Positions 1 through 59,325 of a stretch of 64,000 bases of DNA are shown one piece after another. Source of the stretch: Gelidibacter sp. Lineage in GTDB: Bacteria; Bacteroidota; Bacteroidia; Flavobacteriales; Flavobacteriaceae. Position numbers and translations under genes: made by a program. The stretch lies in NCBI RefSeq assembly GCF_039916245.1, contig NZ_JBDSLS010000108.1, positions 1,230 through 65,229 on the forward strand, in the 5' to 3' direction. The notes under the pieces were generated by a model that saw only the letters and a list, made by a program, of their open reading frames with translations, was not told where the DNA came from and did not search any database. Each line of letters starts with the position of its first letter. Position 1 is the first letter of the stretch.

Positions 1-2
1 AT

Positions 3-743
3 ATCGACAAGCTCAAAGATGTGAGTGAATTGCAGGAAGAGTTTTTGGATACCTTGCTCCGAAAGAAAGAACCCATTAAAAAAAGCAGACTATTTCAAGC
101 GGCTTCCATCGTTTATTATACTTCCGTAGAACAAAAATTTATTTTTAATCGTTTTGTTCAAGGAAAAATCATAAAAGCGCCAGAAGGTTCAGGTGCTGAA
201 TATATGACTAGCTGGAGCTTTTTTGATGTCGGCTGCAACCGACCATTTATCTGCTATATGTACTTCGATTTTGAAGGTTCTAATATTGAAAACAACAAAA
301 CACAAATTTACGAGGTACTAAAAAACTCAGCCGATAGAGACATGACCTTAGAGGTCATGGCGTATGGCATTGATAGAAAATTAGAGGATATCAAACCAAA
401 ACATATCAAAAGGGTTGATTTGGGACCTTTTCATAATGTTTATGCCAAGGACGAAAATCAAATTACCCATGCCATTTTAAAAAGTATTGCCAATAAAGAG
501 GTGCCATTGGAATCGTATGCATTGTCCTTAAGTATTGACGAAGTGACTTCTGGAAGTGAATTTTCTGAAGGCGGCTATTTCTCCAAACAGATCTTACAAA
601 AATGGAACGGACCCATCCAAAAAAGTTATGTCTTGGCGCCACATCGCATTATTCAGTTATTGTACAGTAAAACACCTGAAATCATGAATGGGTTGGCCAA
701 ACCACCGATTCAGATTGCGGATTTGAAGATAAGTAAAGAGTAG
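3..743 (+). CDS. Hypothetical protein, 5'-truncated by the window edge; first visible gene of the AAA operon
   Basis: Frame is open from position 3 (IDKLKDVSELQEE...), so the GTG at 21 is not the real start; stop TAG 741-743; no recognisable catalytic motif. Confidence 0.8.
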   Translation: MDKLKDVSELQEEFLDTLLRKKEPIKKSRLFQAASIVYYTSVEQKFIFNRFVQGKIIKAPEGSGAEYMTSWSFFDVGCNRPFICYMYFDFEGSNIENNKTQIYEVLKNSADRDMTLEVMAYGIDRKLEDIKPKHIKRVDLGPFHNVYAKDENQITHAILKSIANKEVPLESYALSLSIDEVTSGSEFSEGGYFSKQILQKWNGPIQKSYVLAPHRIIQLLYSKTPEIMNGLAKPPIQIADLKISKE

Positions 744-744
744 A

Positions 745-781
745 AGTCGGCAGTCAGCAGTCTTCAGTCTTCAGTCGGCAG
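745..781. repeat. Heptamer tract, left arm of four-helix-bundle element 1
   Basis: AGTCGGC AGTCAGC AGTCTTC AGTCTTC AGTCGGC AG; reverse complement of the tracts at 916-943 and 1343-1405. Confidence 0.9.
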
Positions 782-835
782 ATATTTCGATTTGAAATTG
801 TTTTAGTCATTAATATCAAAACTGAGGGCTGAAAA

Positions 836-915
836 ATGGATTATAAAGATGATAGTGAACTCTTAAGTTATATGGTGAAAAATTTTGGATTAAAATATTA
901 ACGGCAATCTAAAAG
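836..915 (+). pseudogene. Decayed copy of the 3' end and downstream spacer of the adjacent four-helix-bundle gene
   Basis: 860-901 reads LLSYMVKNFGLKY* versus LLNYMINNPDKFGLK* at 1268-1315; both are followed by GGCAAT(CT/TC)AAAAG and a heptamer arm. Confidence 0.65.
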
Positions 916-943
916 TAAGACTGAAGACTGCCAACTGAAGACT
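916..943. repeat. Heptamer tract, right arm R1, ending 6 nt before ATG 950
   Basis: TAAGACT GAAGACT GCCAACT GAAGACT then AAAAAC ATG. Confidence 0.9.
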
Positions 944-949
944 AAAAAC

Positions 950-1315
950 ATGGGTTTCAAAAAATTATTAGCATATCAGAGAGGATTTGATTTAGCCATG
1001 GATATTTTCCACGTGACAAAGGGTTTTCCGAAATCCGAACAATTTGTATTGACGTCTCAAATGGTAAGATCAAGCCGAGCTGTTTGCTCAGCAATTGCAG
1101 AAGCTTATAGAAAACGACAATATGAAAAGCATTTCAAAAGTAAATTATCTGATGCTGATAGTGAAAATTCTGAAACTCAATTGTGGTTAGATTTTGCTTT
1201 GGCTTGAGATTATATAGCTGAACCTAAGAGAATAGAATTACAACTAAAGAGTGAAGAAATTGGAAGACTCTTAAATTATATGATCAACAATCCCGATAAA
1301 TTCGGATTAAAATAA
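950..1315 (+). pseudogene. Four helix bundle protein (23S rRNA IVS-protein family) with an in-frame TGA at codon 86
   Basis: Family motifs LLAYQRGFDLA, FPKSEQFVLTSQMVRSSRAV, IAEAYRKR, SETQLWLDFA. After TGA 1205-1207 the same frame continues DYIAEPKRIELQLKSEEIGRLLNYMINNPDKFGLK to TAA 1313-1315. Confidence 0.85.
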
Positions 1316-1342
1316 TAATGGCAATTCAAAAGATAGAACACT

Positions 1343-1405
1343 ATAGACTACGGACTGCAGACTGCCAGCTGAGGACTGCCCGCTGAGGACTGCCAACTGA
1401 AGACT
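1343..1405. repeat. Heptamer tract, right arm R2 (9 units), ending 8 nt before the AAA ATG
   Basis: ATAGACT ACGGACT GCAGACT GCCAGCT GAGGACT GCCCGCT GAGGACT GCCAACT GAAGACT then TAAAAAAT ATG. Confidence 0.9.
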
Positions 1406-1413
1406 TAAAAAAT

Positions 1414-3372
1414 ATGCAACAAAACTCCACATTCCCCATAAAACAAAACGAACTCGATATGCTTCGTGATGAAGCAGCATCGTATCTCAAAAGCATCCAA
1501 TGGGAGCAAGGGCAACGTGCCAAAAGCAAAGACAAAAATGCTAAGGACGATTCAATTCTGCTTTATCTTTCTAGAGCCAATAACGGCTCAAATAATCCGG
1601 AAACGACTTCGGTATCTAAAACGATTTTGGAGCTTAAAAAACGTCTGTTGCCAGATTCTATTGCCATTCCTGTGTTACTCAATCAAACCTTATATGCCGT
1701 TCAGGAAGGTCTGACTTTGGGGATTTGGATCAAGGACAGTTATTATCATGCCTCAGGATTATCCAGTTTAAATGAGCGTAAAGCTTCTTTGGACAGCTTG
1801 GGCAAAAGAGAATATGAAAGCAAAATGCACACCGCTACAGCGTTCATGTTGTTTGCCGCGGCCTATAATATTTTACATAACCTTAAATCGTATGCGTCGG
1901 ATGATTTGAGCGTCATGAAACAGAAATTTGCTGGAATTCCTGAGGTGTCGTTATTAACGCCATTAAAAGGTGTGGCCTGTACTTTATTTTATTATGATAA
2001 GTATTTGGGACATCCAGATATTATCAAAAGCGATAAGGACGTGGCTGATTTTACAGTGGTGTTTTTTGAAGCGCTGATTGACGAAATCCAAATGCGAAAA
2101 TCTACTTTAGAATATCAAGAAACTATTTTGGATCGCACTTATAAACTGGAGCATTCAGATTTCGCGATTTCTGGATGGAATAACGCTTTCGCCGGTGCTG
2201 CCAAAAGTATAGAGTTCAACAAAATAAAGTTTGAGCAAATTGTCGGTAATAAAGACGCCAAACATTTTGCCCGGCGTTTAACGGAGCGAATGTTGAGTTA
2301 TGATTTTACGGCAAAAAAAAATCCGTTTCAGGAATTGGGCGGATTTATGCCAGTCTTTATGGGCTACGGCATCCCTGGAACAGGAAAAAGTATGCTCATT
2401 GCCGCTATTGCGACGCGATTAAAAGAGTATTGTGACCATTTAGAAATCCCGTTTTTATTTCATCCGATGCCAGATACCTTGATCTCCACTTTTCAAGGTG
2501 GTTCGGCAGAGAAAATGGTGGAGTGGATGAAACCCATGCAAGATCCCACAAAATTGATTTTTGCGCCGATTGATGATGCCGAAAACAATTTACAGGAGCG
2601 AACCGCTCAAGGGGTTTCTGCCGGTGTTAAAGAAGTCATTGGAGTGTTTTTGAGATATACGGAAGGCGCGTACGCAGTAAATTATGGCAACAGCGCCATC
2701 GGACTATTTACCAATTTACCAGAAATGCTGGATAAAGCCGTGATTTCGCGTGTGCAAGGACGATTCAAAATTGATGGTGCGCGAACGGAAAACGACTTTT
2801 TGGATCAGGATCATTTATGGTGGCGCAAGTTACAGGACACCATGCCAGATTTTATAAATATGAAAAATCCTGATCAATATAAATATCTTCAAGATCAAGG
2901 TTTGGCAAAAAGTATGGGAGAAATCTTGAAATCTGTGGATAAGCCTTCAGAAGAACGAGTCCATGCCGTTTATGATCGTGTTGAAAAGCAGTTTCAAACG
3001 AATGAACATCAGTTTTACGCCAATTTATATAAGGAAATCCAACAGGTTTTTCCATTCTTTTCATCGCGTGATGTCAGGAATATCCAATCGGCCATTTCAT
3101 TGCGTTTAACTGATTTTGATTTGGAAACGGCTTGGTTCGATAATCCGGAATTTTATTTTAAACAGACGTATGATACCAAATTCAACATGCTACAGGAATT
3201 GATGCGCGCTAATATGAAAGGTCTTAATTTTTCAGAAATAAGACGTCAGGAAGTGGTGCGTTATCTTGATAATGTGGCCACTATAGCCGACACCGATTTT
3301 AAACGTCAAGTCGATTCAAGAGTCAATCAGCTCAATATAGAATTGGAAGCACGAAAGAAGTTTGAGAAATAG
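1414..3372 (+). CDS. AAA+ ATPase (classic AAA clade-like) with a long uncharacterised N-terminal region
   Basis: Walker A GIPGTGKS (2368-2391), pore-loop-like LISTFQG, Walker B IFAPIDDAE, sensor-1 LFTN, SRH-like LDKAVISRVQGRF. Confidence 0.85.
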   Translation: MQQNSTFPIKQNELDMLRDEAASYLKSIQWEQGQRAKSKDKNAKDDSILLYLSRANNGSNNPETTSVSKTILELKKRLLPDSIAIPVLLNQTLYAVQEGLTLGIWIKDSYYHASGLSSLNERKASLDSLGKREYESKMHTATAFMLFAAAYNILHNLKSYASDDLSVMKQKFAGIPEVSLLTPLKGVACTLFYYDKYLGHPDIIKSDKDVADFTVVFFEALIDEIQMRKSTLEYQETILDRTYKLEHSDFAISGWNNAFAGAAKSIEFNKIKFEQIVGNKDAKHFARRLTERMLSYDFTAKKNPFQELGGFMPVFMGYGIPGTGKSMLIAAIATRLKEYCDHLEIPFLFHPMPDTLISTFQGGSAEKMVEWMKPMQDPTKLIFAPIDDAENNLQERTAQGVSAGVKEVIGVFLRYTEGAYAVNYGNSAIGLFTNLPEMLDKAVISRVQGRFKIDGARTENDFLDQDHLWWRKLQDTMPDFINMKNPDQYKYLQDQGLAKSMGEILKSVDKPSEERVHAVYDRVEKQFQTNEHQFYANLYKEIQQVFPFFSSRDVRNIQSAISLRLTDFDLETAWFDNPEFYFKQTYDTKFNMLQELMRANMKGLNFSEIRRQEVVRYLDNVATIADTDFKRQVDSRVNQLNIELEARKKFEK

Positions 3373-3417
3373 AGAAAAGAGGGAAGAAAATAGAGTATAG
3401 AAAATAGACAATAGAAG
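3369..3417. repeat. Heptamer tract (ATAGAnn family, 7 units) starting at the AAA stop codon
   Basis: ATAGAGA AAAGAGG GAAGAAA ATAGAGT ATAGAAA ATAGACA ATAGAAG. Confidence 0.8.
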
Positions 3418-3461
3418 TTCATCAATAAACATGAGAGACGAACTGAAATAAAGGCTAATAA

Positions 3462-3502
3462 ATCAGTGGAAATCAGCAGAATCAGCATCATCAGTGTTCT
3501 AT
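3462..3502. repeat. ATCAG 9/10-mer repeat element
   Basis: ATCAG at 3462, 3472, 3481, 3490; the end ATCAGCATCATCAGTGTTCTAT resembles 55280-55301 and 55391-55412. Confidence 0.7.
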
Positions 3503-3574
3503 GAAAATTAAACGAATTATTGTCTAATATGAATGAGTTCATTAAACCGATTAACACCACACAAACAACAAAGA

Positions 3575-4168
3575 ATGTCAGAAAACATAAAAAATATCGT
3601 CCATAAAACCCTTTCTAAAGCTTGGGCAACTTTGCTTCAGATTGATTATGATTATAAATTCAAAGACGGTACATGGAAACGCGTTTCAAGAGAAAGTTAT
3701 GATCGCGGAAATGGCACAGGCGTTTTGTTATATAATATTGAAAAGAGGACTGTTATTTTGACGAAACAATTCCGGATGCCCATTTACGAAACTAATCCTG
3801 ATGAAGCCATGTCACTTGAAGTCTGCGCTGGAGCCATTGATAAAAATCAATCCCCAGAATCGACCATCATTCGAGAAGTGGAAGAAGAAGTGGGGTATAA
3901 AATAAAAGAAGTTAAAAAGGTTCTGGAAGCTTATATGTCTCCTGGAGCATTAACAGAAAAAATGTATTTATTTATTGCGCCTTATACAGATGCTATGAAG
4001 ATTAATGAAGGTGGCGGTGTTGCGGGAGAACATGAAGAGATTGAAGTTTTGGAAATGCCGTTTTTAAAAGCTCTCAAAATGATGGAATCAGGAGACATTC
4101 GAGATGCTAAAACAATCATGTTGTTACAGTATGCACAAATGAATGATTTAATAAAGAATAAAGAATAA
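3575..4168 (+). CDS. nudK: Nudix hydrolase, GDP-mannose pyrophosphatase NudK/YffH-like
   Basis: Nudix box GAIDKNQSPESTIIREVEEEVG; RESYDRGNG, YMSPG and DAKTIMLLQY typical of NudK; ATG 3575 is preferred over 3533. Confidence 0.75.
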   Translation: MSENIKNIVHKTLSKAWATLLQIDYDYKFKDGTWKRVSRESYDRGNGTGVLLYNIEKRTVILTKQFRMPIYETNPDEAMSLEVCAGAIDKNQSPESTIIREVEEEVGYKIKEVKKVLEAYMSPGALTEKMYLFIAPYTDAMKINEGGGVAGEHEEIEVLEMPFLKALKMMESGDIRDAKTIMLLQYAQMNDLIKNKE

Positions 4169-4226
4169 AGAATAAAGAATAAAGAATAAAGAATAAAGAA
4201 TAAAGAATAAAGAATAAAGAATAAAG
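4150..4226. repeat. Perfect tandem repeat (AATAAAG)x11
   Basis: 77 bp counted directly; the nudK stop TAA 4166-4168 lies inside it; (TAGAAAC)x2 follows at 4234-4247. Confidence 0.95.
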
Positions 4227-4253
4227 TTTATTTTAGAAACTAGAAACCAGTTA

Positions 4254-5489
4254 ATGGAAAAGCTAAAAGCAGCACATTTATTTAGAGATGAACTCATCCC
4301 AATTAGTGGGAAGCTTGTTGAGCGTTACAATCAGTGCCTGAAAACTTTGGGAATTGCTGAAACAAAACTCTCGGGTTTTTCTATTGACGGAATTGGTTGG
4401 AGTCCTGAAATTGCTGAAGAAAAAAAGGAAATTCATTATCTAAATAATGGAGAGGCCAATCCAAACGGTATCATCATAACGCCATTGCAAAAGGGAAAAC
4501 CTGTGTATGTGCCTTTTCATACTTTTGATAGGGATATGATGCAGCACATCTTTAAAACCTATGAAGAAAAAATCAATGATATTACGAGAGACTGTGCGAT
4601 TTGCATTGATTTTGACCAATATATCGATGCCTTTTATGAGCCTTTAGATATTTTAAAATACAAGGATATTTCCATAAGTTTTAAACTGATCAACAATCTT
4701 GATAAGGAGCAAAAAAAGCAGTTTCAACTGATTGATAGCTTTAAACAGGGCAATAATTTTATTGATGAACACCTGCAGCAACAGTTGTTGGACTCGGCAA
4801 AAACCTATGGCGATTTAAGACACCGAAATTTAGAGCTCAATGAGCTTTATTTCTCAACGGATTCGTTTTACACCAGCGCATTTGGAGGTGTGTATCTATT
4901 ACGAGATTTCATAGCGCCAATTATGGTGTTCGAAGATGAGAAATGGCATAAGGAAGCCATAAAAGATACGTCTCATGAGGTTTTTATTTATCACATTTCG
5001 CAACCAGAATTGCTCGATAAATTACAAGACCATTTAATTATCGAATATGATTTAGAAGAAGTGGTAAAGACACCACGCTATGAACGTATCAAAAAATTCA
5101 TGTTTTCTCAGATTTTAAAGGACACCCAAAACCCAATAAAAGATATTTTGGATGACAAAGTGCTGTTCAAAGGCTATTTGAACAAAATGACGATTGAAGA
5201 CCGTAAGAAAGTCATGAGTGTTGAGCTTTATCTCGAAAAAATGGAAGTCAGCAACCAATATAAATTGGCAGATATTGTAGATGTCAAACTTTTTGAAGCC
5301 TTGCAACAACCGCATTCATCATTGAGTCCGAAGCATCAGGATTTGATTTGGAAATTATTGGTTAATATTTCGCCTTTGGATGTTTTATTCTTGTATTGGT
5401 ATGATAAAGAGCAGTTTTATAAAAATTATAAGGATTGGGATGAATCGTTGAAAGATTGGGTGATTGAAACCATCCGTAACAATATATAG
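4254..5489 (+). CDS. DUF6638-like protein of unknown function
   Basis: 411-aa ORF; LVERYNQCL, FSIDGIGWSPEI, YLNNGEANP and FYTSAFGGVYLLRD match my recollection of DUF6638 (not searched). Confidence 0.6.
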   Translation: MEKLKAAHLFRDELIPISGKLVERYNQCLKTLGIAETKLSGFSIDGIGWSPEIAEEKKEIHYLNNGEANPNGIIITPLQKGKPVYVPFHTFDRDMMQHIFKTYEEKINDITRDCAICIDFDQYIDAFYEPLDILKYKDISISFKLINNLDKEQKKQFQLIDSFKQGNNFIDEHLQQQLLDSAKTYGDLRHRNLELNELYFSTDSFYTSAFGGVYLLRDFIAPIMVFEDEKWHKEAIKDTSHEVFIYHISQPELLDKLQDHLIIEYDLEEVVKTPRYERIKKFMFSQILKDTQNPIKDILDDKVLFKGYLNKMTIEDRKKVMSVELYLEKMEVSNQYKLADIVDVKLFEALQQPHSSLSPKHQDLIWKLLVNISPLDVLFLYWYDKEQFYKNYKDWDESLKDWVIETIRNNI

Positions 5490-5545
5490 CTAAGAGCTAG
5501 AAGCATGAAGAATAGAGTTGGAAGATTGAAGCACGAAGCATGAAG
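5487..5545. repeat. Heptamer tract, left arm of four-helix-bundle element 2
   Basis: TAGCTAA GAGCTAG AAGCATG AAGAATA GAGTTGG AAGATTG AAGCACG AAGCATG AAG; begins with the upstream stop TAG. Confidence 0.85.
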
Positions 5546-5844
5546 TTTTATATCTTTATAATTTAGATATTAGAGAGTTGTAATTTGAAGGTTTGATTCT
5601 TTCGCAAAAACGCGAGGAATATTTTGCAACATAAAACTTTAGCAATAAAATAAGAAATGATGTACGTAATGACTCGGTTGAGTTTTTAATATTTCATCGA
5701 TAAAACGTATAAGAAATGTCATTTTTTGAAGTTTTGGAATATAAACTGAAGTTAAACTAAAGTGTTTTGCTTTCAGTTTCTTGCTTCAAACCTAAATATA
5801 AGTTTATGATTCAAATAGAAATAATTTTATTAAATAGCAATAGT

Positions 5845-5879
5845 CAAGCTTCGTGCTCCACGCTTCCAGCTTCCAACTT
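5845..5879. repeat. Heptamer tract, right arm R1 of element 2, 8 nt before ATG 5888
   Basis: CAAGCTT CGTGCTC CACGCTT CCAGCTT CCAACTT; reverse complement of the 5487-5545 consensus. Confidence 0.85.
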
Positions 5880-5887
5880 TTTTTATC

Positions 5888-6248
5888 ATGAAATTTAAAT
5901 TTGAAAATTTAATAATTTGGCAGAAAGCGATGGACTTGGGAGAGGAGATGAATGCTTTAGCATATAAGTTTCCAAAAGAAGAGCTATATAATCTTTCTTC
6001 CCAAGTTAGAAGAGCGTCAGATTCTATAGCATTGAATATTTCAGAAGGTTCAATTTTGCAATCAGATGCTGAATATAGAAAATTCTTAGGTTATGCAATA
6101 AGATCAACTGCCCGAAGTAGTGACGTGTTTGCATAAAGCGAAAAGAAGAAATTGTTTGAATGAAGACGATTTTCTTAAATTCTATAAAGCATGTTTTGAT
6201 TTAATGAATATGACCATTGCATTTAGGAACAGAATTAAAAAAGCATGA
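5888..6248 (+). pseudogene. Four helix bundle protein (IVS-protein family), frameshifted by one extra C
   Basis: FKFENLIIWQKAMDL, FPKEELYNLSSQVRRASDSIALNISEGS. Removing one C from GCCCGAA (6110-6116) restores EVVTCLHKAKRRNCLNEDDFLKFYKACFDLMNMTIAFRNRIKKA to TGA 6246-6248. Confidence 0.85.
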
Positions 6249-6421
6249 AGCACGAATTTGGATGCGCGAAGTAATACTTTTTTTACCACAATAATTGTTA
6301 AACTTCGCGCTTCATGCTCCCAACTTCAAACATAAATATGATAACTTATGATTGCATTAGAAATAGAATTAATCATCTGCAAGTTCAAAGCTTCGGGCTT
6401 CGAGCTTCAAACTTCCAGCTT
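6241..6421. repeat. Heptamer tracts after element-2 gene: left-type 6241-6271, right-type 6299-6333 and 6380-6421
   Basis: AAGCATG AAGCACG AATTTGG ATGCGCG AAG / TAAACTT CGCGCTT CATGCTC CCAACTT / AAAGCTT CGGGCTT CGAGCTT CAAACTT CCAGCTT then TTACAC ATG (6428). Confidence 0.85.
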
Positions 6422-6427
6422 TTACAC

Positions 6428-6946
6428 ATGACACTAGAAATTATCGTTTTTATCGGCTCAATTTTATTCGGAATTCTTCTGTATTGGAGAGAGTCAAACG
6501 GCAACGGACTGTATCGTTTTTTTAATAAAATGATGTATTCCAAAAAGCTTCAGATGTCGCCTAATGATCCTACAGGTTTTCTATATCAACAAAAATTCTT
6601 GCTGCGGTTGGTATTTGTTGGAATGATATTTCTGGTTGGAATTTTGATTGCGAGATTCCTGATTCCAATTGATGTTGCTACGATTTCAGTATTTGCTTCG
6701 AGTATTGTCGGTACGCTTTTGGGAACTTATATTGGCGGATTTATTTTAAAGTCTGAAAAAATAATTGACGCGCAAAGTGATTCTATAGAGCGAAAATTGG
6801 ATGGTGCCATTGATCAAGGTCGTGATTTTATTAAGGATATTTCAACACGACAACCAAAAGTTGTAGAAGAAGCAGAAAAGGAAGTTCTCAAAGATCCGAA
6901 TCAAAAAAGTGCGCGAGAACGCTTGAAGGATAAAGGATTGATGTGA
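6428..6946 (+). CDS. Hypothetical membrane protein (about 3-4 TM helices, charged C-terminal tail)
   Basis: The ORF-track start 6314 runs through repeat DNA; ATG 6428 starts the hydrophobic segment MTLEIIVFIGSILFGILLYW. Confidence 0.75.
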   Translation: MTLEIIVFIGSILFGILLYWRESNGNGLYRFFNKMMYSKKLQMSPNDPTGFLYQQKFLLRLVFVGMIFLVGILIARFLIPIDVATISVFASSIVGTLLGTYIGGFILKSEKIIDAQSDSIERKLDGAIDQGRDFIKDISTRQPKVVEEAEKEVLKDPNQKSARERLKDKGLM

Positions 6947-6992
6947 TTTTTGAGTAGTGAATAACGATTGAAGATTAACGATTTTTGAATTT
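6944..6992. repeat. Degenerate heptamer tract (nGAnTnn) starting at the stop codon
   Basis: TGATTTT TGAGTAG TGAATAA CGATTGA AGATTAA CGATTTT TGAATTT. Confidence 0.65.
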
Positions 6993-7038
6993 CTGATTAT
7001 ATCAACTTTACGACAAACAACACACAACAGAAAAGGCC

Positions 7039-8736
7039 ATGCTAAAAAAATATTGGAATAGAGGAAGTAGACAAAAAACCATAACCATCATTGGAGTAGT
7101 GGTTTTAATAGCATTATTGTTTTTCCTTCGTGATGATTATCAACCCTTTTTATTATGGATCAGGAAATTCATTTTTGTAATTCTGGTGATAGGTTTGGTA
7201 TTGTTTTTCGGGTTGCGAAGTTTTCGAAACTCGGTCGGCGTTGGACGGCGCATTGGTATTTTGGCACTTTTAGTGTTGTTTTTTGGATCGCTTTACTACA
7301 TTGGTTGGCACTTTAAGATGTATGATTATATGAAAACCTACAATGTTTTCAATCATTTGAATAAAGTTCAAATCAACGAATTGCCGCTTACACAAAACGA
7401 ACGCATCCAACCATTGCGCAATATTTTCTCTATGGCCAACGAATCGGTTGGAGAAACGAAGGACGTGTCGTTGCCGCATTTGGTAAGAGTCGATGGCGAG
7501 AACAGATGGACGATGGCTATCCAGCCGTCTGAAAAATATACCATGCAGCAAATCAGTGAGAATACTGAAGAGATCTTTTCAGTTTCCAGTACCTCGCCAT
7601 TTCCAAGGTTTTCCAGTGAAAATCGCATTCCTGTGACCTTTTCTATTGGCGAATCTTTAAAGTTTAGTAGAAATACTTATCATGCCGTGGTACAACGTTT
7701 CAATATTTTTCAGTTGTTTACCATGGAGCCTGGAGATACGTTTTACATGAAAAACGATTCAGGAAAATGGGTAGAAGTGGTGAGTTTGATCAAATGGAAG
7801 GGCTTCTTTTTTCCATATCCAACTTTTGGAGGTGTGATGGTCATTGATAGTGGGAAACACGACTTCAATGATTATGTGGAACGTATCTTGATCGGGAAAG
7901 GCACATATATCAGTCCAGAGGAAATGAAAAATCATCCGTTTTTGACCAAGCAGAATACGCTCTCAGAAAAAGTGTCACGCTTACAAGCGGAATCTTTAAA
8001 GTTTTTAGGCGGATTTACGGATCCATTGCCATGGAAAATGCAAACGGCCGTAAAAATTCCCGATATGCCAGACGATCAAAATGAACAGCCTTTTGTAACC
8101 GATTTCAATTTTGAGGGCGTCGATGCTAAAGCTTATAATGGTTTGTACCATTGGTTCGGATTGGAGCCCATTGGCGATGAGCGCACAAGTTTGGCCTATA
8201 GCGTATTTGTGCCTGCTGATGGCACCGATAAATTATATTATTATGATCATGCGGCCAGGAAACAAGGTTACGCCGGAGTTTCCGCAATGCCTTTAAAAAT
8301 CATCGAATCCCGTAAGGAGGTGGATTGGTCGGTAAATAAACCTGTTGAATTTAGACCATATATTAAAGATATCGCGGGTAGAAGACGGATGTTTTTCTTA
8401 GGCACCGTTTCAGCAGTAAAAGAATATTCAAAAAAGTTTGATGGATCGGCCACACCAGATTTAGCACTGATTGATAGTGAATATCGTGATGTCATCTGGA
8501 TTGATGTCAAACATCCAAGTCAATGGGATAAAACCGTCTATGATCAATTGAACGAAGCGTGGAGAGCCAGTGAAGGCATTGGTTATTATTATGATGAAGT
8601 CAAAACGCCATCTGACTTGGATATGATGCAAAAAGAAATGGATTCAATTCAGTCCATTCCCAAAGTGAATGCGAATACAGATCAAATAAAAAAATTACAA
8701 CGTCAGATTGATTCTTTAAAATCGGTTGAGAATTGA
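7039..8736 (+). CDS. Hypothetical membrane-anchored protein (3 N-terminal TM helices, large soluble domain)
   Basis: 565-aa ORF; three hydrophobic stretches in the first 90 aa; short helical C-terminus. Confidence 0.8.
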   Translation: MLKKYWNRGSRQKTITIIGVVVLIALLFFLRDDYQPFLLWIRKFIFVILVIGLVLFFGLRSFRNSVGVGRRIGILALLVLFFGSLYYIGWHFKMYDYMKTYNVFNHLNKVQINELPLTQNERIQPLRNIFSMANESVGETKDVSLPHLVRVDGENRWTMAIQPSEKYTMQQISENTEEIFSVSSTSPFPRFSSENRIPVTFSIGESLKFSRNTYHAVVQRFNIFQLFTMEPGDTFYMKNDSGKWVEVVSLIKWKGFFFPYPTFGGVMVIDSGKHDFNDYVERILIGKGTYISPEEMKNHPFLTKQNTLSEKVSRLQAESLKFLGGFTDPLPWKMQTAVKIPDMPDDQNEQPFVTDFNFEGVDAKAYNGLYHWFGLEPIGDERTSLAYSVFVPADGTDKLYYYDHAARKQGYAGVSAMPLKIIESRKEVDWSVNKPVEFRPYIKDIAGRRRMFFLGTVSAVKEYSKKFDGSATPDLALIDSEYRDVIWIDVKHPSQWDKTVYDQLNEAWRASEGIGYYYDEVKTPSDLDMMQKEMDSIQSIPKVNANTDQIKKLQRQIDSLKSVEN

Positions 8737-50350: not shown

Positions 50351-50479
50351 AAAGACAAAAGATACAAGAATATAGAGAAAAGAGTGATGTCAGCAGATAA
50401 TCGAAGACAGATGACGGAAGACAGATGACCGAAGACAGATGACCGAAGACAGAGGACCGAAGACAGAGGACTGCTGACT
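50351..50479. repeat. Solo heptamer tract (7 + 11 units)
   Basis: AAAGACA AAAGATA CAAGAAT ATAGAGA AAAGAGT GATGTCA GCAGATA, a 3-nt offset, then (GAAGACA GAkGACn)x5 GCTGACT. Confidence 0.9.
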
Positions 50480-50661: not shown

Positions 50662-53112
50662 ATGAAAGAATCTAATTTTTTAAGTCTTGACAGTTTGTCA
50701 TTTCAAGAGTTTGATGAAAACTCGGAGTTAATTCCATTGATGACACCCGAAGATGAAGAGCAAATAAATAACGAAGAATTACCAGCAACCTTACCTATTT
50801 TACCATTGCGAAATACGGTATTATTTCCAGGGGTTGTCATTCCAATCACTGCCGGAAGAGATAAATCCATTAAGTTGATTAATGAAGCCAATAAGGGCAG
50901 CAAAGTCATTGGCGTTGTTTCTCAAAAAGATGGCAGTATCGAAGATCCTGAAGGTAAAGATATTTACACAACGGGTACAGTGGCCAGAATACTTCGTGTC
51001 CTTAAAATGCCTGATGGCAATACGACCATTATCATTCAAGGGAAAAAACGATTTGAAATTGATCAGGTCATCACAGAGGAACCTTATATTACAGCAACCG
51101 TTAAAGATGTTGAAGAGGCGAAACCTGCTGAAGACAATGAAGAGTTTTCAGCGATTATTGAATCTATAAAAGATTTGGCGCTACAAATTATCAAGGAAAG
51201 TCCAAACATTCCATCAGAGGCGAGTTTTGCAATCAAAAATATTGAGAGCAATTCCTTTTTAGTGAACTTTGTATCGTCAAACATGAACCTTTCTGTTGAT
51301 GAAAAGCAAAAGTTATTAGAAATCAGCAACTTGAAGGAGCGCGCATTGGCGACCTTAAAGTTTATGAACGTCGAATTCCAAAAATTAGCTCTTAAAAACG
51401 ATATCCAGTCTAAGGTTCAGAGTGATATGAACCAGCAGCAGCGCGAATATTTCTTGCATCAACAAATGAAAACCATTCAAGAAGAATTGGGTGGCGTATC
51501 TTACGATGAAGAGATTGATGAAATGAAAGCGCTTTCAAAAACCAAGAAATGGGATGACAAAGTTGATTCACATTTTCAAAAGGAATTGATGAAATTGCAA
51601 CGGATGAATCCGCAAGTTGCCGAATATTCTATTCAAAGGAATTATCTTGATTTGTTTTTGGAATTGCCATGGAATAAATTCAGCAAGGATAAATTCGATT
51701 TAAAAAGAGCACAACGCATCTTAGATCGTGACCATTATGGGTTGGATGATGTAAAGAAAAGAATCATCGAATATCTTGCCGTATTGAAATTGCGCAACGA
51801 TATGAAATCGCCGATCCTTTGTTTATACGGACCTCCGGGAGTAGGGAAGACGTCTTTAGGAAAATCGATCGCAGAGGCTTTAGGTCGAGAATACATAAGA
51901 ATGTCCTTAGGTGGTTTGCGTGACGAAGCAGAAATCCGCGGACACAGAAAAACTTATATTGGAGCCATGCCAGGACGTATCCTGCAAAGTTTGAAAAAAG
52001 CTGGCACTTCGAATCCTGTGTTTGTATTGGATGAGATTGATAAATTATCCAACAGTAATCAAGGTGATCCATCTTCTGCGATGTTGGAAGTATTGGATCC
52101 TGAGCAAAATTCAGATTTTCACGATAACTTTTTGGAGATGGGCTATGACCTTTCCAAAGTCATGTTTATTGCAACGGCAAATAGTTTGAGCAACATTCAG
52201 CCAGCTTTATTGGATCGTATGGAAATCATTGATGTGACAGGGTATACCATTGAAGAAAAGGTAGAAATTGCCAAACGTCATTTATTGCCAAAACAATTGA
52301 AGGAGCATGGTTTAACCGAAGGGGACTTGAAAATAGCCAAACCACAATTGGAGAAAATTGTGGAAGGGTATACCAGAGAATCTGGCGTGAGAGGACTTGA
52401 AAAGCAATTGGCTAAAATGGTGCGCTATGCGGCCAAAAACATTGCCATGGATGAAGTCTACGATAAAAAGGTATCTAATGAAGTTATTATTGAAGTATTG
52501 GGTTCTCCACGAATGGAGCGCGACAAATACGAAAATAACAATGTGGCGGGTGTAGTGACAGGGTTGGCCTGGACACGAGTAGGCGGCGATATTCTATTTA
52601 TTGAATCCATTCTGTCCAAAGGAAAAGGAACCTTGACCATAACAGGCAATTTAGGAACGGTTATGAAAGAATCGGCCACCATTGCCATGGAATTCATCAA
52701 ATCCAATGCTGCCGAATATGGGATCGACCCCGAAGTTTTCGAGAAATACAATGTACACATTCACGTGCCAGAAGGTGCAACTCCAAAAGATGGGCCAAGC
52801 GCTGGTGTCACGATGTTGACCTCATTGGTATCCTTGTTTACACAACGTAAAGTGAAAAATAGTTTAGCCATGACAGGCGAAATTACGTTACGTGGTAAAG
52901 TATTGCCAGTTGGTGGTATTAAGGAGAAAATATTGGCAGCCAAACGTGCCCGCATCACAGAAATCTTACTTTCTGAAGATAATAGACGTGACATTGAGGA
53001 AATCAAACCTGAGTATTTGAAAGGGTTAAAATTCCATTATGTAACAGATATGAGTGATGTTATTAAAGAAGCACTTTTGGACGAAAAAGTCAAGAACGCT
53101 AAAACCTTATAA
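50662..53112 (+). CDS. lon: Lon protease (endopeptidase La)
   Basis: [39 protein letters not shown]. Confidence 0.97.
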
Positions 53113-58818: not shown

Positions 58819-59169
58819 ATGACGAGTGAAGAATTATTTCAAATAGATAAGAAAATCTCCGAAAATGGCGATGAAGTGATCGTGTCTTTTGGAGCTTTTG
58901 ATGGTTTGGATGAAATTCATCGCGTAGATGCCATGATGTTTGATAATATTTCTGAAGACGTTGGCCGATATGATGGCCATGAAGTAAATATGGAGGATAC
59001 GGATGGACGTCTTTTTGCCTATGGCAGAAATGCCGAAGAACTATTTAAGTTGATGCAACCAATTTTACTGCAATTTGACTTTTTACAAAAAGCGATGGTG
59101 TATTTGCGTTTCAATAATGAAGACGGTTCGCATAGTGAACTTGAGTTTAGATTAGAGGAAGTTGCGTAG
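58819..59169 (+). CDS. Acidic hypothetical protein between pyrR and pyrB
   Basis: 116 aa from ATG 58819, 2 nt after the pyrR stop; GRYDGHE and GRLFAYG motifs; D/E-rich. Confidence 0.7.
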   Translation: MTSEELFQIDKKISENGDEVIVSFGAFDGLDEIHRVDAMMFDNISEDVGRYDGHEVNMEDTDGRLFAYGRNAEELFKLMQPILLQFDFLQKAMVYLRFNNEDGSHSELEFRLEEVA

Positions 59170-59325
59170 GAAGTGGGCAGAGGAAAGAATATAGAAGATA
59201 GAAGATAGAATATAGAGGGTAGAATGTAGAGTAAACGAAATAGAAATTGCCTGCCCGTCCGTAGCTTTAGCGAAGGCTGGAAGTCGAAAATGAACTTGAA
59301 ACCTTGAATTCTGAACCTTGAACTT
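59170..59325. repeat. Composite tract: 11 ATAGAnn heptamers, GC-rich insert, TGAAC heptamers
   Basis: 59170-59246 ...ATAGAAG ATAGAAG ATAGAAT ATAGAGG GTAGAAT GTAGAGT...; CCTGCCCGTCCGTAGCTTTAGCGAAGGCTGG 59250-59280; TGAA at 59291, 59297, 59305, 59312, 59319. Confidence 0.8.

Follow-up and report, generated by a model that had tools for sequence, protein, structure and literature searches.

The stretch of DNA considered here, called the window, is 64,000 nucleotides (nt) long and corresponds to positions 1230-65229 of contig NZ_JBDSLS010000108.1 (C108) of Gelidibacter sp. (GCF_039916245.1, genome G000), a draft genome of 3.48 Mb with 37% G+C and 310 contigs. Positions 1-8736 of the window form a co-directional row of genes, and in the operon located there all five junctions between genes bear tracts with a period of 7 nt, which start at, or a few bases from, a stop codon. 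Two of these junctions, 741-1413 and 5487-6427, are decaying cassettes built around a gene of the PF05635 (23S_rRNA_IVP) four-helix-bundle family and carrying inverted heptamer arms. This work concerns the heptamer arrays, their placement in the genome and their relationship with PF05635 genes.

The features of the operon and the array near 59170 are all on the plus strand. Genes were called crudely, as longest open reading frames (ORFs) with no trained gene model, and the position of a stop is the same whichever start is chosen. Tracts were called with Tandem Repeats Finder (TRF), and their boundaries are uncertain by a few bases. The operon contains an unnamed upstream gene (g0, ending at 743 with the stop TAG 741-743), an AAA-family ATPase gene (1414-3372, stop TAG 3370-3372; PF00004, E 1.1e-8), a NUDIX hydrolase gene (3566-4168, stop TAA 4166-4168), a DUF6638 gene (4254-5489, stop TAG 5487-5489; PF20343, E 2.9e-34), a membrane-protein gene (6428-6946, stop TGA 6944-6946), and a 565-aa gene starting at 7039. 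The longest NUDIX ORF runs from 3533, and the likely start at the ATG 3566 is backed by relatives that align only from residue 5-15 of that ORF. Likewise, 6428 is the likely start of the membrane-protein gene, the longest ORF of which runs from 6314. The order of the AAA ATPase, NUDIX and DUF6638 trio (1414-5489) is kept in 13 of the 13 congeners examined. A search of the window against Rfam gave no match and no ribosomal RNA (rRNA).

At the first junction, the stop codon TAG of g0 is followed by the 5' arm, an AGTCnnC (CAGT-core) array (741-781, with the tract proper at 745-781), which is the inverted complement of 917-943 (85%) and of 1362-1398 (73%). Next come what is left of an older PF05635 gene, its 3' end (839-900), and an ACTG-core array (917-943), together spanning 839-943; direct repeats D2-D5 match 1208-1337, the 3' end of the following PF05635 copy. 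This copy (950-1318, E 1.3e-22) is broken by an in-frame TGA (1205-1207). The 3' arm, an ACTG-core array of the form (GACTGCC AGCTGAG)n at 1340-1405, ends 8 nt before the start of the AAA gene at 1414. The second cassette opens with the stop TAG of the DUF6638 gene, which begins a 5' arm of the AAGCAnG type (5487-5548), with the nAGnnnn/AAGCATG tract reaching about 5545. Inverted pairs I1-I4 join this arm to 5844-5890, 6300-6331, and 6387-6420. A complementary array of the CTTCnnG type (5844-5881) ends 7 nt before the start of a second PF05635 gene (5888-6247, E 6e-21), which is frameshifted or stopped, with one TGA and one TAA inside the match. An AAGCATG-type array (6241-6272) and complementary CTTCG-type arrays (6300-6331 and 6385-6421) complete the element over 6241-6421, and the last of them ends 7 nt before the likely ATG at 6428. 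The layout is stop codon, G/T-rich 5' arm, PF05635 pseudogene, A/C-rich 3' arm, start codon, with complementary A/C-rich arrays preceding both the PF05635 start and the start of the next gene. Both elements lie between protein-coding genes and neither is in a 23S rRNA helix.

No inverted partner exists for the tracts at 3369, 4150, and 6944-7031, which are unstructured as RNA (z -0.5 to +1.3). An ATAGAnn x7 array (3369-3417; TRF 3385-3416; z -0.36) overlaps the stop TAG of the AAA gene. A perfect AATAAAG x11 array (4150-4226, 100% matches) encodes the last residues of the NUDIX protein and supplies its TAA stop, and TAGAAAC x2 (4234-4247) stands ahead of the DUF6638 start. At 6944-7031, an nGATTnn array opens with the stop TGA and is followed by CGACAAA CAACACA CAACAGA, 8 nt before the next ATG; these two parts are not mutually complementary, and no RNA structure is found (z +1.31). 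Elsewhere in the window, the stop TAG at 59167-59169 is followed by an ATAGAAG-type array from 59179 (59167-59231). All the tracts listed in the first-pass annotation of this DNA, which had noticed that junction tracts begin at stops, were found where it had placed them, including an AGTCTTC tract 1 nt after the stop at 743 and a tract near 59170, which in fact starts about 10 nt past the stop.

Other repeats lie among the arrays. A dispersed repeat, AATCAGCnnCATCAGCGTTC, which is not a heptamer array, occupies 3444-3522, with matches on contigs C159 and C160; the two genes of the PF13366 (GxxExxY/PDDEXK_3) family in this genome, located on C272 and C222, likewise have it, rather than heptamer arms, at their flanks. 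Another element, TTCCCGCCnnCGCnAAAGCnnCGGACGGGCA, is small, GC-rich and palindromic and is found at 59241-59272 and also at C49:6470, C148:5726, C181:14639, and other sites. It has 8 strict matches and is nested in heptamer arrays of several families, the array resuming on both sides. It is reminiscent of mini-elements nested in cyanobacterial heptamer repeats. At 50394-50471, about 190 nt upstream of a gene at 50662, lies an array with a period of 14 nt, (GACAGAT GACCGAA) x5.6; GACAGAT is also the heptamer of the stem in Coxiella's intervening sequence (IVS) (PMC4990558), which may be a coincidence.

In the whole genome, TRF returns 474 rows of period 7, against 151 of period 6 and 159 of period 8. 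Period 14 accounts for 147 rows, with 61 and 68 for its neighbors, and period 21 for 67 rows, with 14 and 8. After merging, there are 538 tracts, 384 of which (71%) are intergenic, the intergenic share of the genome being 15.6% under the crude ORF calls. Co-directional spacers have 0.94 tracts per kb, convergent ones 0.71, and divergent ones 0.28. When tracts are re-placed at random, each within its own spacer, 15.0 +/- 3.4 are expected within 3 nt of a stop and 43 are observed, an approximately 3-fold excess; within 6 nt, 64 are observed for 21 expected. A smaller excess is found at starts, with 44 tracts for 29 expected within 10 nt. The non-random position of tracts at gene boundaries, proposed in the first-pass annotation, is borne out both by the densities in the three types of spacer and by the null model of distance to stops. 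Tract-bearing junctions are mildly clustered, and the run of five in the operon is the longest in the genome, observed once for 0.01 expected.

The units fall into 156 classes for 417 tracts. Eighty-four classes occur only once, and the most frequent are AAGACTG (27 tracts) and AAATTCC (16). Consequently, the initial impression that each junction has a different heptamer is right inside the operon but does not extend to the genome, where the units form recurrent families. Strict CAGT arrays, defined below, are found at about 78 loci. Array lengths peak at 4 units and tail off smoothly, and a preferred length of five units, as the footprint of a pentamer, is unsupported. Two further candidates were rejected. 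Arrays do not account for contig breaks (7 tracts at contig ends for 5.8 expected). Nor do they provide a safety net of stops in three frames: 50% of stop-adjacent tracts have a sense stop in their unit, compared with 50.5% of random heptamers of this composition, and the cycling of a 7-nt unit through the three frames, pointed out at the outset, has no detectable role.

The arrays are oriented with respect to the adjoining gene. Tracts at most 12 nt from a stop or a start were read in the sense of that gene; those beside stops have an A+C fraction of 0.44 and those beside starts one of 0.66 (Mann-Whitney p 1e-11), a contrast not seen in tract-free spacers. In the largest family, strict arrays, that is, those having at least three CAGT (or ACTG) cores, obey a sharper rule across the genome. 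After stops, there are 36 CAGT arrays and no ACTG array; before starts, there are 9 ACTG arrays and 1 CAGT array, with a gap of 5-15 nt. Four arrays inspected in two other genera follow the same orientation rule. The stop codon itself is biased, TAG closing 48% of tract-adjacent genes vs. 19.8% of genes genome-wide (p 2e-9) and, within the CAGT family, 76%. TAG is in phase with the array in 18 of 27 cases, where it fills the CAG slot of the first unit, so that arrays often have the stop codon itself as their opening unit. The stop-flush position, the fixed orientation, and the in-phase TAG show that the arrays are non-random, being installed or kept relative to the transcript.

PF05635 genes and arrays occur together. 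Thirteen of the 18 PF05635 matches of the genome have a period-7 tract within 400 nt, compared with 19% of all genes, and several are bracketed by clean inverted arrays. Five of the 18 have internal stops, both window copies included, and two further matches run off contig ends. The same layout is found, almost without exception, at 20 PF05635 loci taken from 20 other genera of the family (Flavobacteriaceae). The period of the flanking arrays is mostly 7 there, and 8 in two cases (L141 and L145, from two genera, with inverted arrays GGTTACAA / ATAACCAT; CATAACAG). At these 20 loci, arms pair with their own partner at -29.8 kcal/mol vs. -20.0 kcal/mol for cross-pairs. One cassette in another genus has a CAGT arm of 270 nt. 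In addition, complete gene-less CAGT/ACTG hairpins, which take up the whole spacer between a stop and the next start, fold with z values of -6.4 and -7.0, and end-to-end pairing of spacers is enriched (3.5% vs. 1.0% at -20 kcal/mol or lower).

The history of the arrays can be followed in 13 congeners where the operon is conserved, with 76-92% nucleotide identity, the nearest relative being about 90% identical. As the first-pass annotation had suggested, period and position are kept and the sequence is not: unit and copy number vary at orthologous junctions among the 13 congeners. The short tracts that it had seen before starts are real; they are weak here and longer at the same sites in congeners, which carry AAGAAAC x2-8 at the DUF6638 start, where this genome has TAGAAAC x2, and GACAACA up to x7 at the site of the pre-start tract at 7011. 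At the same junctions, some congeners have spacers of 8-36 nt with no array. At the NUDIX-DUF6638 junction, four congeners (L018:4069-4835, L020, L024, and L025) have an extra membrane-protein gene of about 200 aa followed by AAGAAAC x6-8; the L025 copy looks degraded.

There are 2 AATAAAG-like units in the nearest relative and 11 here, a recent in-place expansion by which the NUDIX stop was moved into the array. The nGATTnn array is 3 units shorter in the nearest relative; the ATAGAnn array is absent from it and present in three congeners. At the first junction, where this genome has a PF05635 pseudogene, the nearest relative has a gene-less hairpin made up of TAA, a CAGT arm, an 11-nt loop, an ACTG arm, and ATG, and another congener retains only the PF05635 3' remnant and the 3' arm. 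Hence, at least there, cassettes decay to hairpins or solo arms. Three further CAGT junctions were compared in five congeners. At two of them, the array is present in 5/5 congeners with its units turned over. At the third one, a CAGT array with TAG in this genome corresponds to an AAATTCC-type hairpin with TAA in two relatives, a replacement that in-place slippage cannot explain.

The two cassette junctions are also the site of another repeat. Where congeners lack the PF05635 cassette, a structured-looking repeat of about 150 nt (ttccttccc...aagggaaggtggatt...gacggaaggg, plus ...ccacctcgtcttca...ccactcctcc...ggaggag) occupies the same two junctions. It is found at L015:5441-5727, at L018:835-1375, in other congeners, and in G000 at C218:4274-4495; the repeat of the congeners has no match in Rfam.

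Across the family, one genome per genus was sampled, which gives 151 genomes (150 other genera and this genome). Arrays were detected with a probe of four CAGT cores at 7-nt spacing, the only core tested. The number of CAGT-array matches correlates with the number of PF05635 matches (Spearman 0.61, p 5e-17, a statistic that ignores kinship). CAGT arrays occur in 3 of the 42 genomes without PF05635 and in 60 of the 109 with it (odds ratio 16, p 3e-8, kinship again being ignored), and in 10 of the 11 genomes having ten or more copies. Of the 21 PF05635-free genomes that reach 2.9 Mb or more, 3 have arrays, with 1-2 matches each; genome size alone is therefore no explanation for the association. 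The link to the four-helix gene suspected in the first-pass annotation is supported by this correlation and by the proximity of PF05635 matches to tracts. The correlation between tract number and four-helix gene count that it had set as a check holds for CAGT arrays, but is only weak for a generic count of period-7 tracts (rho 0.40, p 0.10, in 100-kb samples of 18 genera).

From these data, our reading, which we hold with evenly balanced confidence, is that the tracts are genome-wide, oriented, intergenic heptamer arrays belonging to the same class as the inverted arms of IVS-like PF05635 cassettes. Such arrays would be a slippage-prone class of sequence, installed and kept in transcript orientation at gene boundaries, and PF05635 cassettes and gene-less hairpins would be one source and carrier of them. 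Solo arrays could derive from the decay or replacement of a cassette or hairpin, leaving an arm at a stop or a start, or from the growth, on the spot, of a heptamer seed containing the stop codon; they change quickly by replication slippage. In a cassette, pairing of the arms may leave the insert looped out of the polycistronic RNA; the hairpin form would plausibly let the insert sit between cistrons as an IVS sits in rRNA. By analogy with rRNA intervening sequences, the stem might be cut by RNase III. The observations above establish the excess, placement, orientation, stop-codon bias, and turnover of the arrays and their association with PF05635; the part played by the hairpin in RNA, a general origin of solo arrays in cassettes, and any function of the arrays are inferred.

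Several observations weigh against this reading. Most arrays are solo, with 8 CAGT-to-ACTG hairpin pairs among 78 strict CAGT arrays, and end-to-end pairing is seen in 12 of 174 tract-bearing spacers only, so that the idea of every tract being one arm of a stop-to-start hairpin was rejected as a general rule. Arm duplexes are weaker as sense RNA (-37.5 kcal/mol) than as antisense RNA (-43.6 kcal/mol, p 3e-4). The effect runs opposite to that expected from a G.U signature of selection on the sense transcript, and this candidate was rejected too. At variable positions, no arm-to-arm covariation was found beyond the repertoire of the family (0.62 vs. 0.60, n=8). Selection for pairing in sense RNA is not supported. 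As for mobility, the core is present at about 78 loci and one replacement between relatives is observed; the arms differ between copies, and no enzyme, target-site duplication, or movement was seen for the arrays. The correlation over 151 genera is phylogenetically uncorrected and its counts are inflated by a few very long arrays, and the genomes richest in PF05635 (17, 12, and 11 copies) have no generic period-7 excess in 100-kb samples. Finally, the first-pass annotation invoked one process creating or targeting the tracts. This is too simple, because a minority of them are in cassettes or hairpins and some arise in place by slippage.

Slippage could even be the whole story. The tracts would then be ordinary microsatellites, produced by a replication that favors 7-nt units and surviving where they are harmless, after stops and in spacers, with PF05635 cassettes merely sharing the same permissive spacers. 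The in-place growth of AATAAAG from 2 to 11 units, the resemblance of the ATAGAnn unit to the local stop context, and a copy number that differs at every orthologous junction all fit this view, as do the lowest density in divergent, promoter-bearing spacers (0.28 vs. 0.94 per kb in co-directional ones) and the weakness with which the generic period-7 count tracks PF05635. Moreover, in many prokaryotes no long simple repeats are more frequent than those with a 7-nt unit (Mrazek, 2007, cited in PMC4679880). However, pure slippage leaves unexplained why one CAGT core recurs at about 78 loci and is oriented 36:0 after stops, why TAG codons are in phase with the array, why one family is replaced by another at a junction between relatives about 90% identical, and why CAGT arrays are nearly confined to genomes with PF05635. 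For these reasons, we consider slippage combined with purifying selection fairly unlikely to suffice, while it is still a serious rival. The arrays could instead be selected as cis-elements of the transcript that act without pairing, either as unstructured periodic spacers or as platforms for single-strand-binding proteins, A/C-rich arrays aiding initiation without a Shine-Dalgarno sequence and G/T-rich ones acting at termination or on mRNA stability. Binding of S1, Csp, or CsrA has been proposed for TAACTGA arrays upstream of starts (MacGregor, 2015, PMC4679880). Such a role would agree with the lack of RNA structure in solo arrays (z -1.1 to +1.3), with a composition and orientation tied to the transcript, and with the persistence of arrays at the same junctions of congeners despite the turnover of units. 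Yet several congeners manage the same junctions with array-free spacers of 8-36 nt, and 156 unit classes are too many for one specific binder, which makes this possibility unlikely in our opinion.

It is very improbable that the pattern results from chance or from an artifact of ORF calling or TRF thresholds. The gene calls are crude and TRF edges are uncertain, but many standard deviations separate observation from expectation for the period spectrum, for placement under the null model, for orientation, and for stop-codon use, and stop positions are unaffected by the choice of start. Going beyond the assignment of the tracts to the class of cassette arms, one may also imagine that PF05635 proteins themselves recognize single-stranded RNA or DNA that carries periodic heptamer arrays, or act on it, and thereby create, spread, or maintain the oriented arrays at gene boundaries. 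These proteins, which form ring-shaped pentamers of four-helix bundles, might do so in much the way TRAP and HutP read evenly spaced triplets. This reading is quite unlikely. If it held, the heptamer excess in Bacteroidota, and perhaps the short tandemly repeated repetitive sequences (STRRs) of cyanobacteria, would be a footprint of the PF05635 family.

These results bear on two old questions, the dominance of heptamers among long simple repeats in many bacteria and the role of rRNA-IVS proteins. The present genome offers a tractable case, with abundant, transcript-oriented arrays that often supply stop codons, turn over between close relatives, and statistically track PF05635 number over a family. 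They also matter for annotation: slippage shifts the ends and starts of genes beside arrays, and cassettes can split operons without obvious polarity.

The pattern noticed in the first-pass annotation is therefore real, and only partly new. Heptamer over-representation, ACTG-core arrays upstream of starts (PMC4679880), and heptamers in an IVS stem are already in print. In the literature searched, we found no description of the strict orientation at stops, of the stop codon as first unit, of the stepwise decay of a cassette into a hairpin and then a solo arm, or of the family-wide PF05635 association. Long simple sequence repeats (LSSRs; Mrazek et al., 2007) and cyanobacterial STRRs (Mazel et al., 1990) resemble the present arrays in being tandem heptamers with an over-represented period of 7, mostly intergenic and variable in copy number. 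The features of LSSR type found here are head-to-tail 7-nt units, a period-7 excess, and changes in copy number by slippage between relatives. Two STRR units, probably CCCCAGT and CAACAGT, would share the CAGT core. Unlike LSSRs and STRRs, the arrays described here sit flush against stops or starts in a set orientation, they often take the stop as their first unit, and a subset forms the inverted arms of PF05635 cassettes; these features were not found described for LSSRs or STRRs in the literature searched.

A parallel for the arrays before starts is provided by the direct TAACTGA repeats described in Beggiatoaceae, Cyanobacteria, and some Bacteroidetes (MacGregor, 2015, PMC4679880). They have an ACTG core, are intergenic, and lie in forward orientation just upstream of starts, and some sets overlap the upstream stop, as here; other heptamer repeats were reported in spacers of Gramella and Aequorivita in the same study. 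However, the TAACTGA system has one dominant heptamer, whereas 156 classes, 84 of them single, are found here, and our signal is strongest at stops, where the arrays read as the complement, CAGT. In addition, PF05635 cassettes and hairpins are not connected with the repeats in that paper. For the cassettes, the closest printed counterpart is the ORF-bearing IVS of 23S rRNA, found in Leptospira and, with the S23p ORF, in Coxiella burnetii (PMC4990558). There too, a PF05635 ORF lies in a loop, a long stem is formed by complementary ends, tandem heptamers vary in number, and the ORF decays. The stem of the Coxiella IVS contains GACAGAT repeats, the number of which varies, and the first of them is where RNase III cleaves (PMC4990558). 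In contrast with the rRNA IVS, the elements described here lie between protein-coding cistrons, excision by RNase III would apply to them only by analogy, and the arrays far outnumber the genes.

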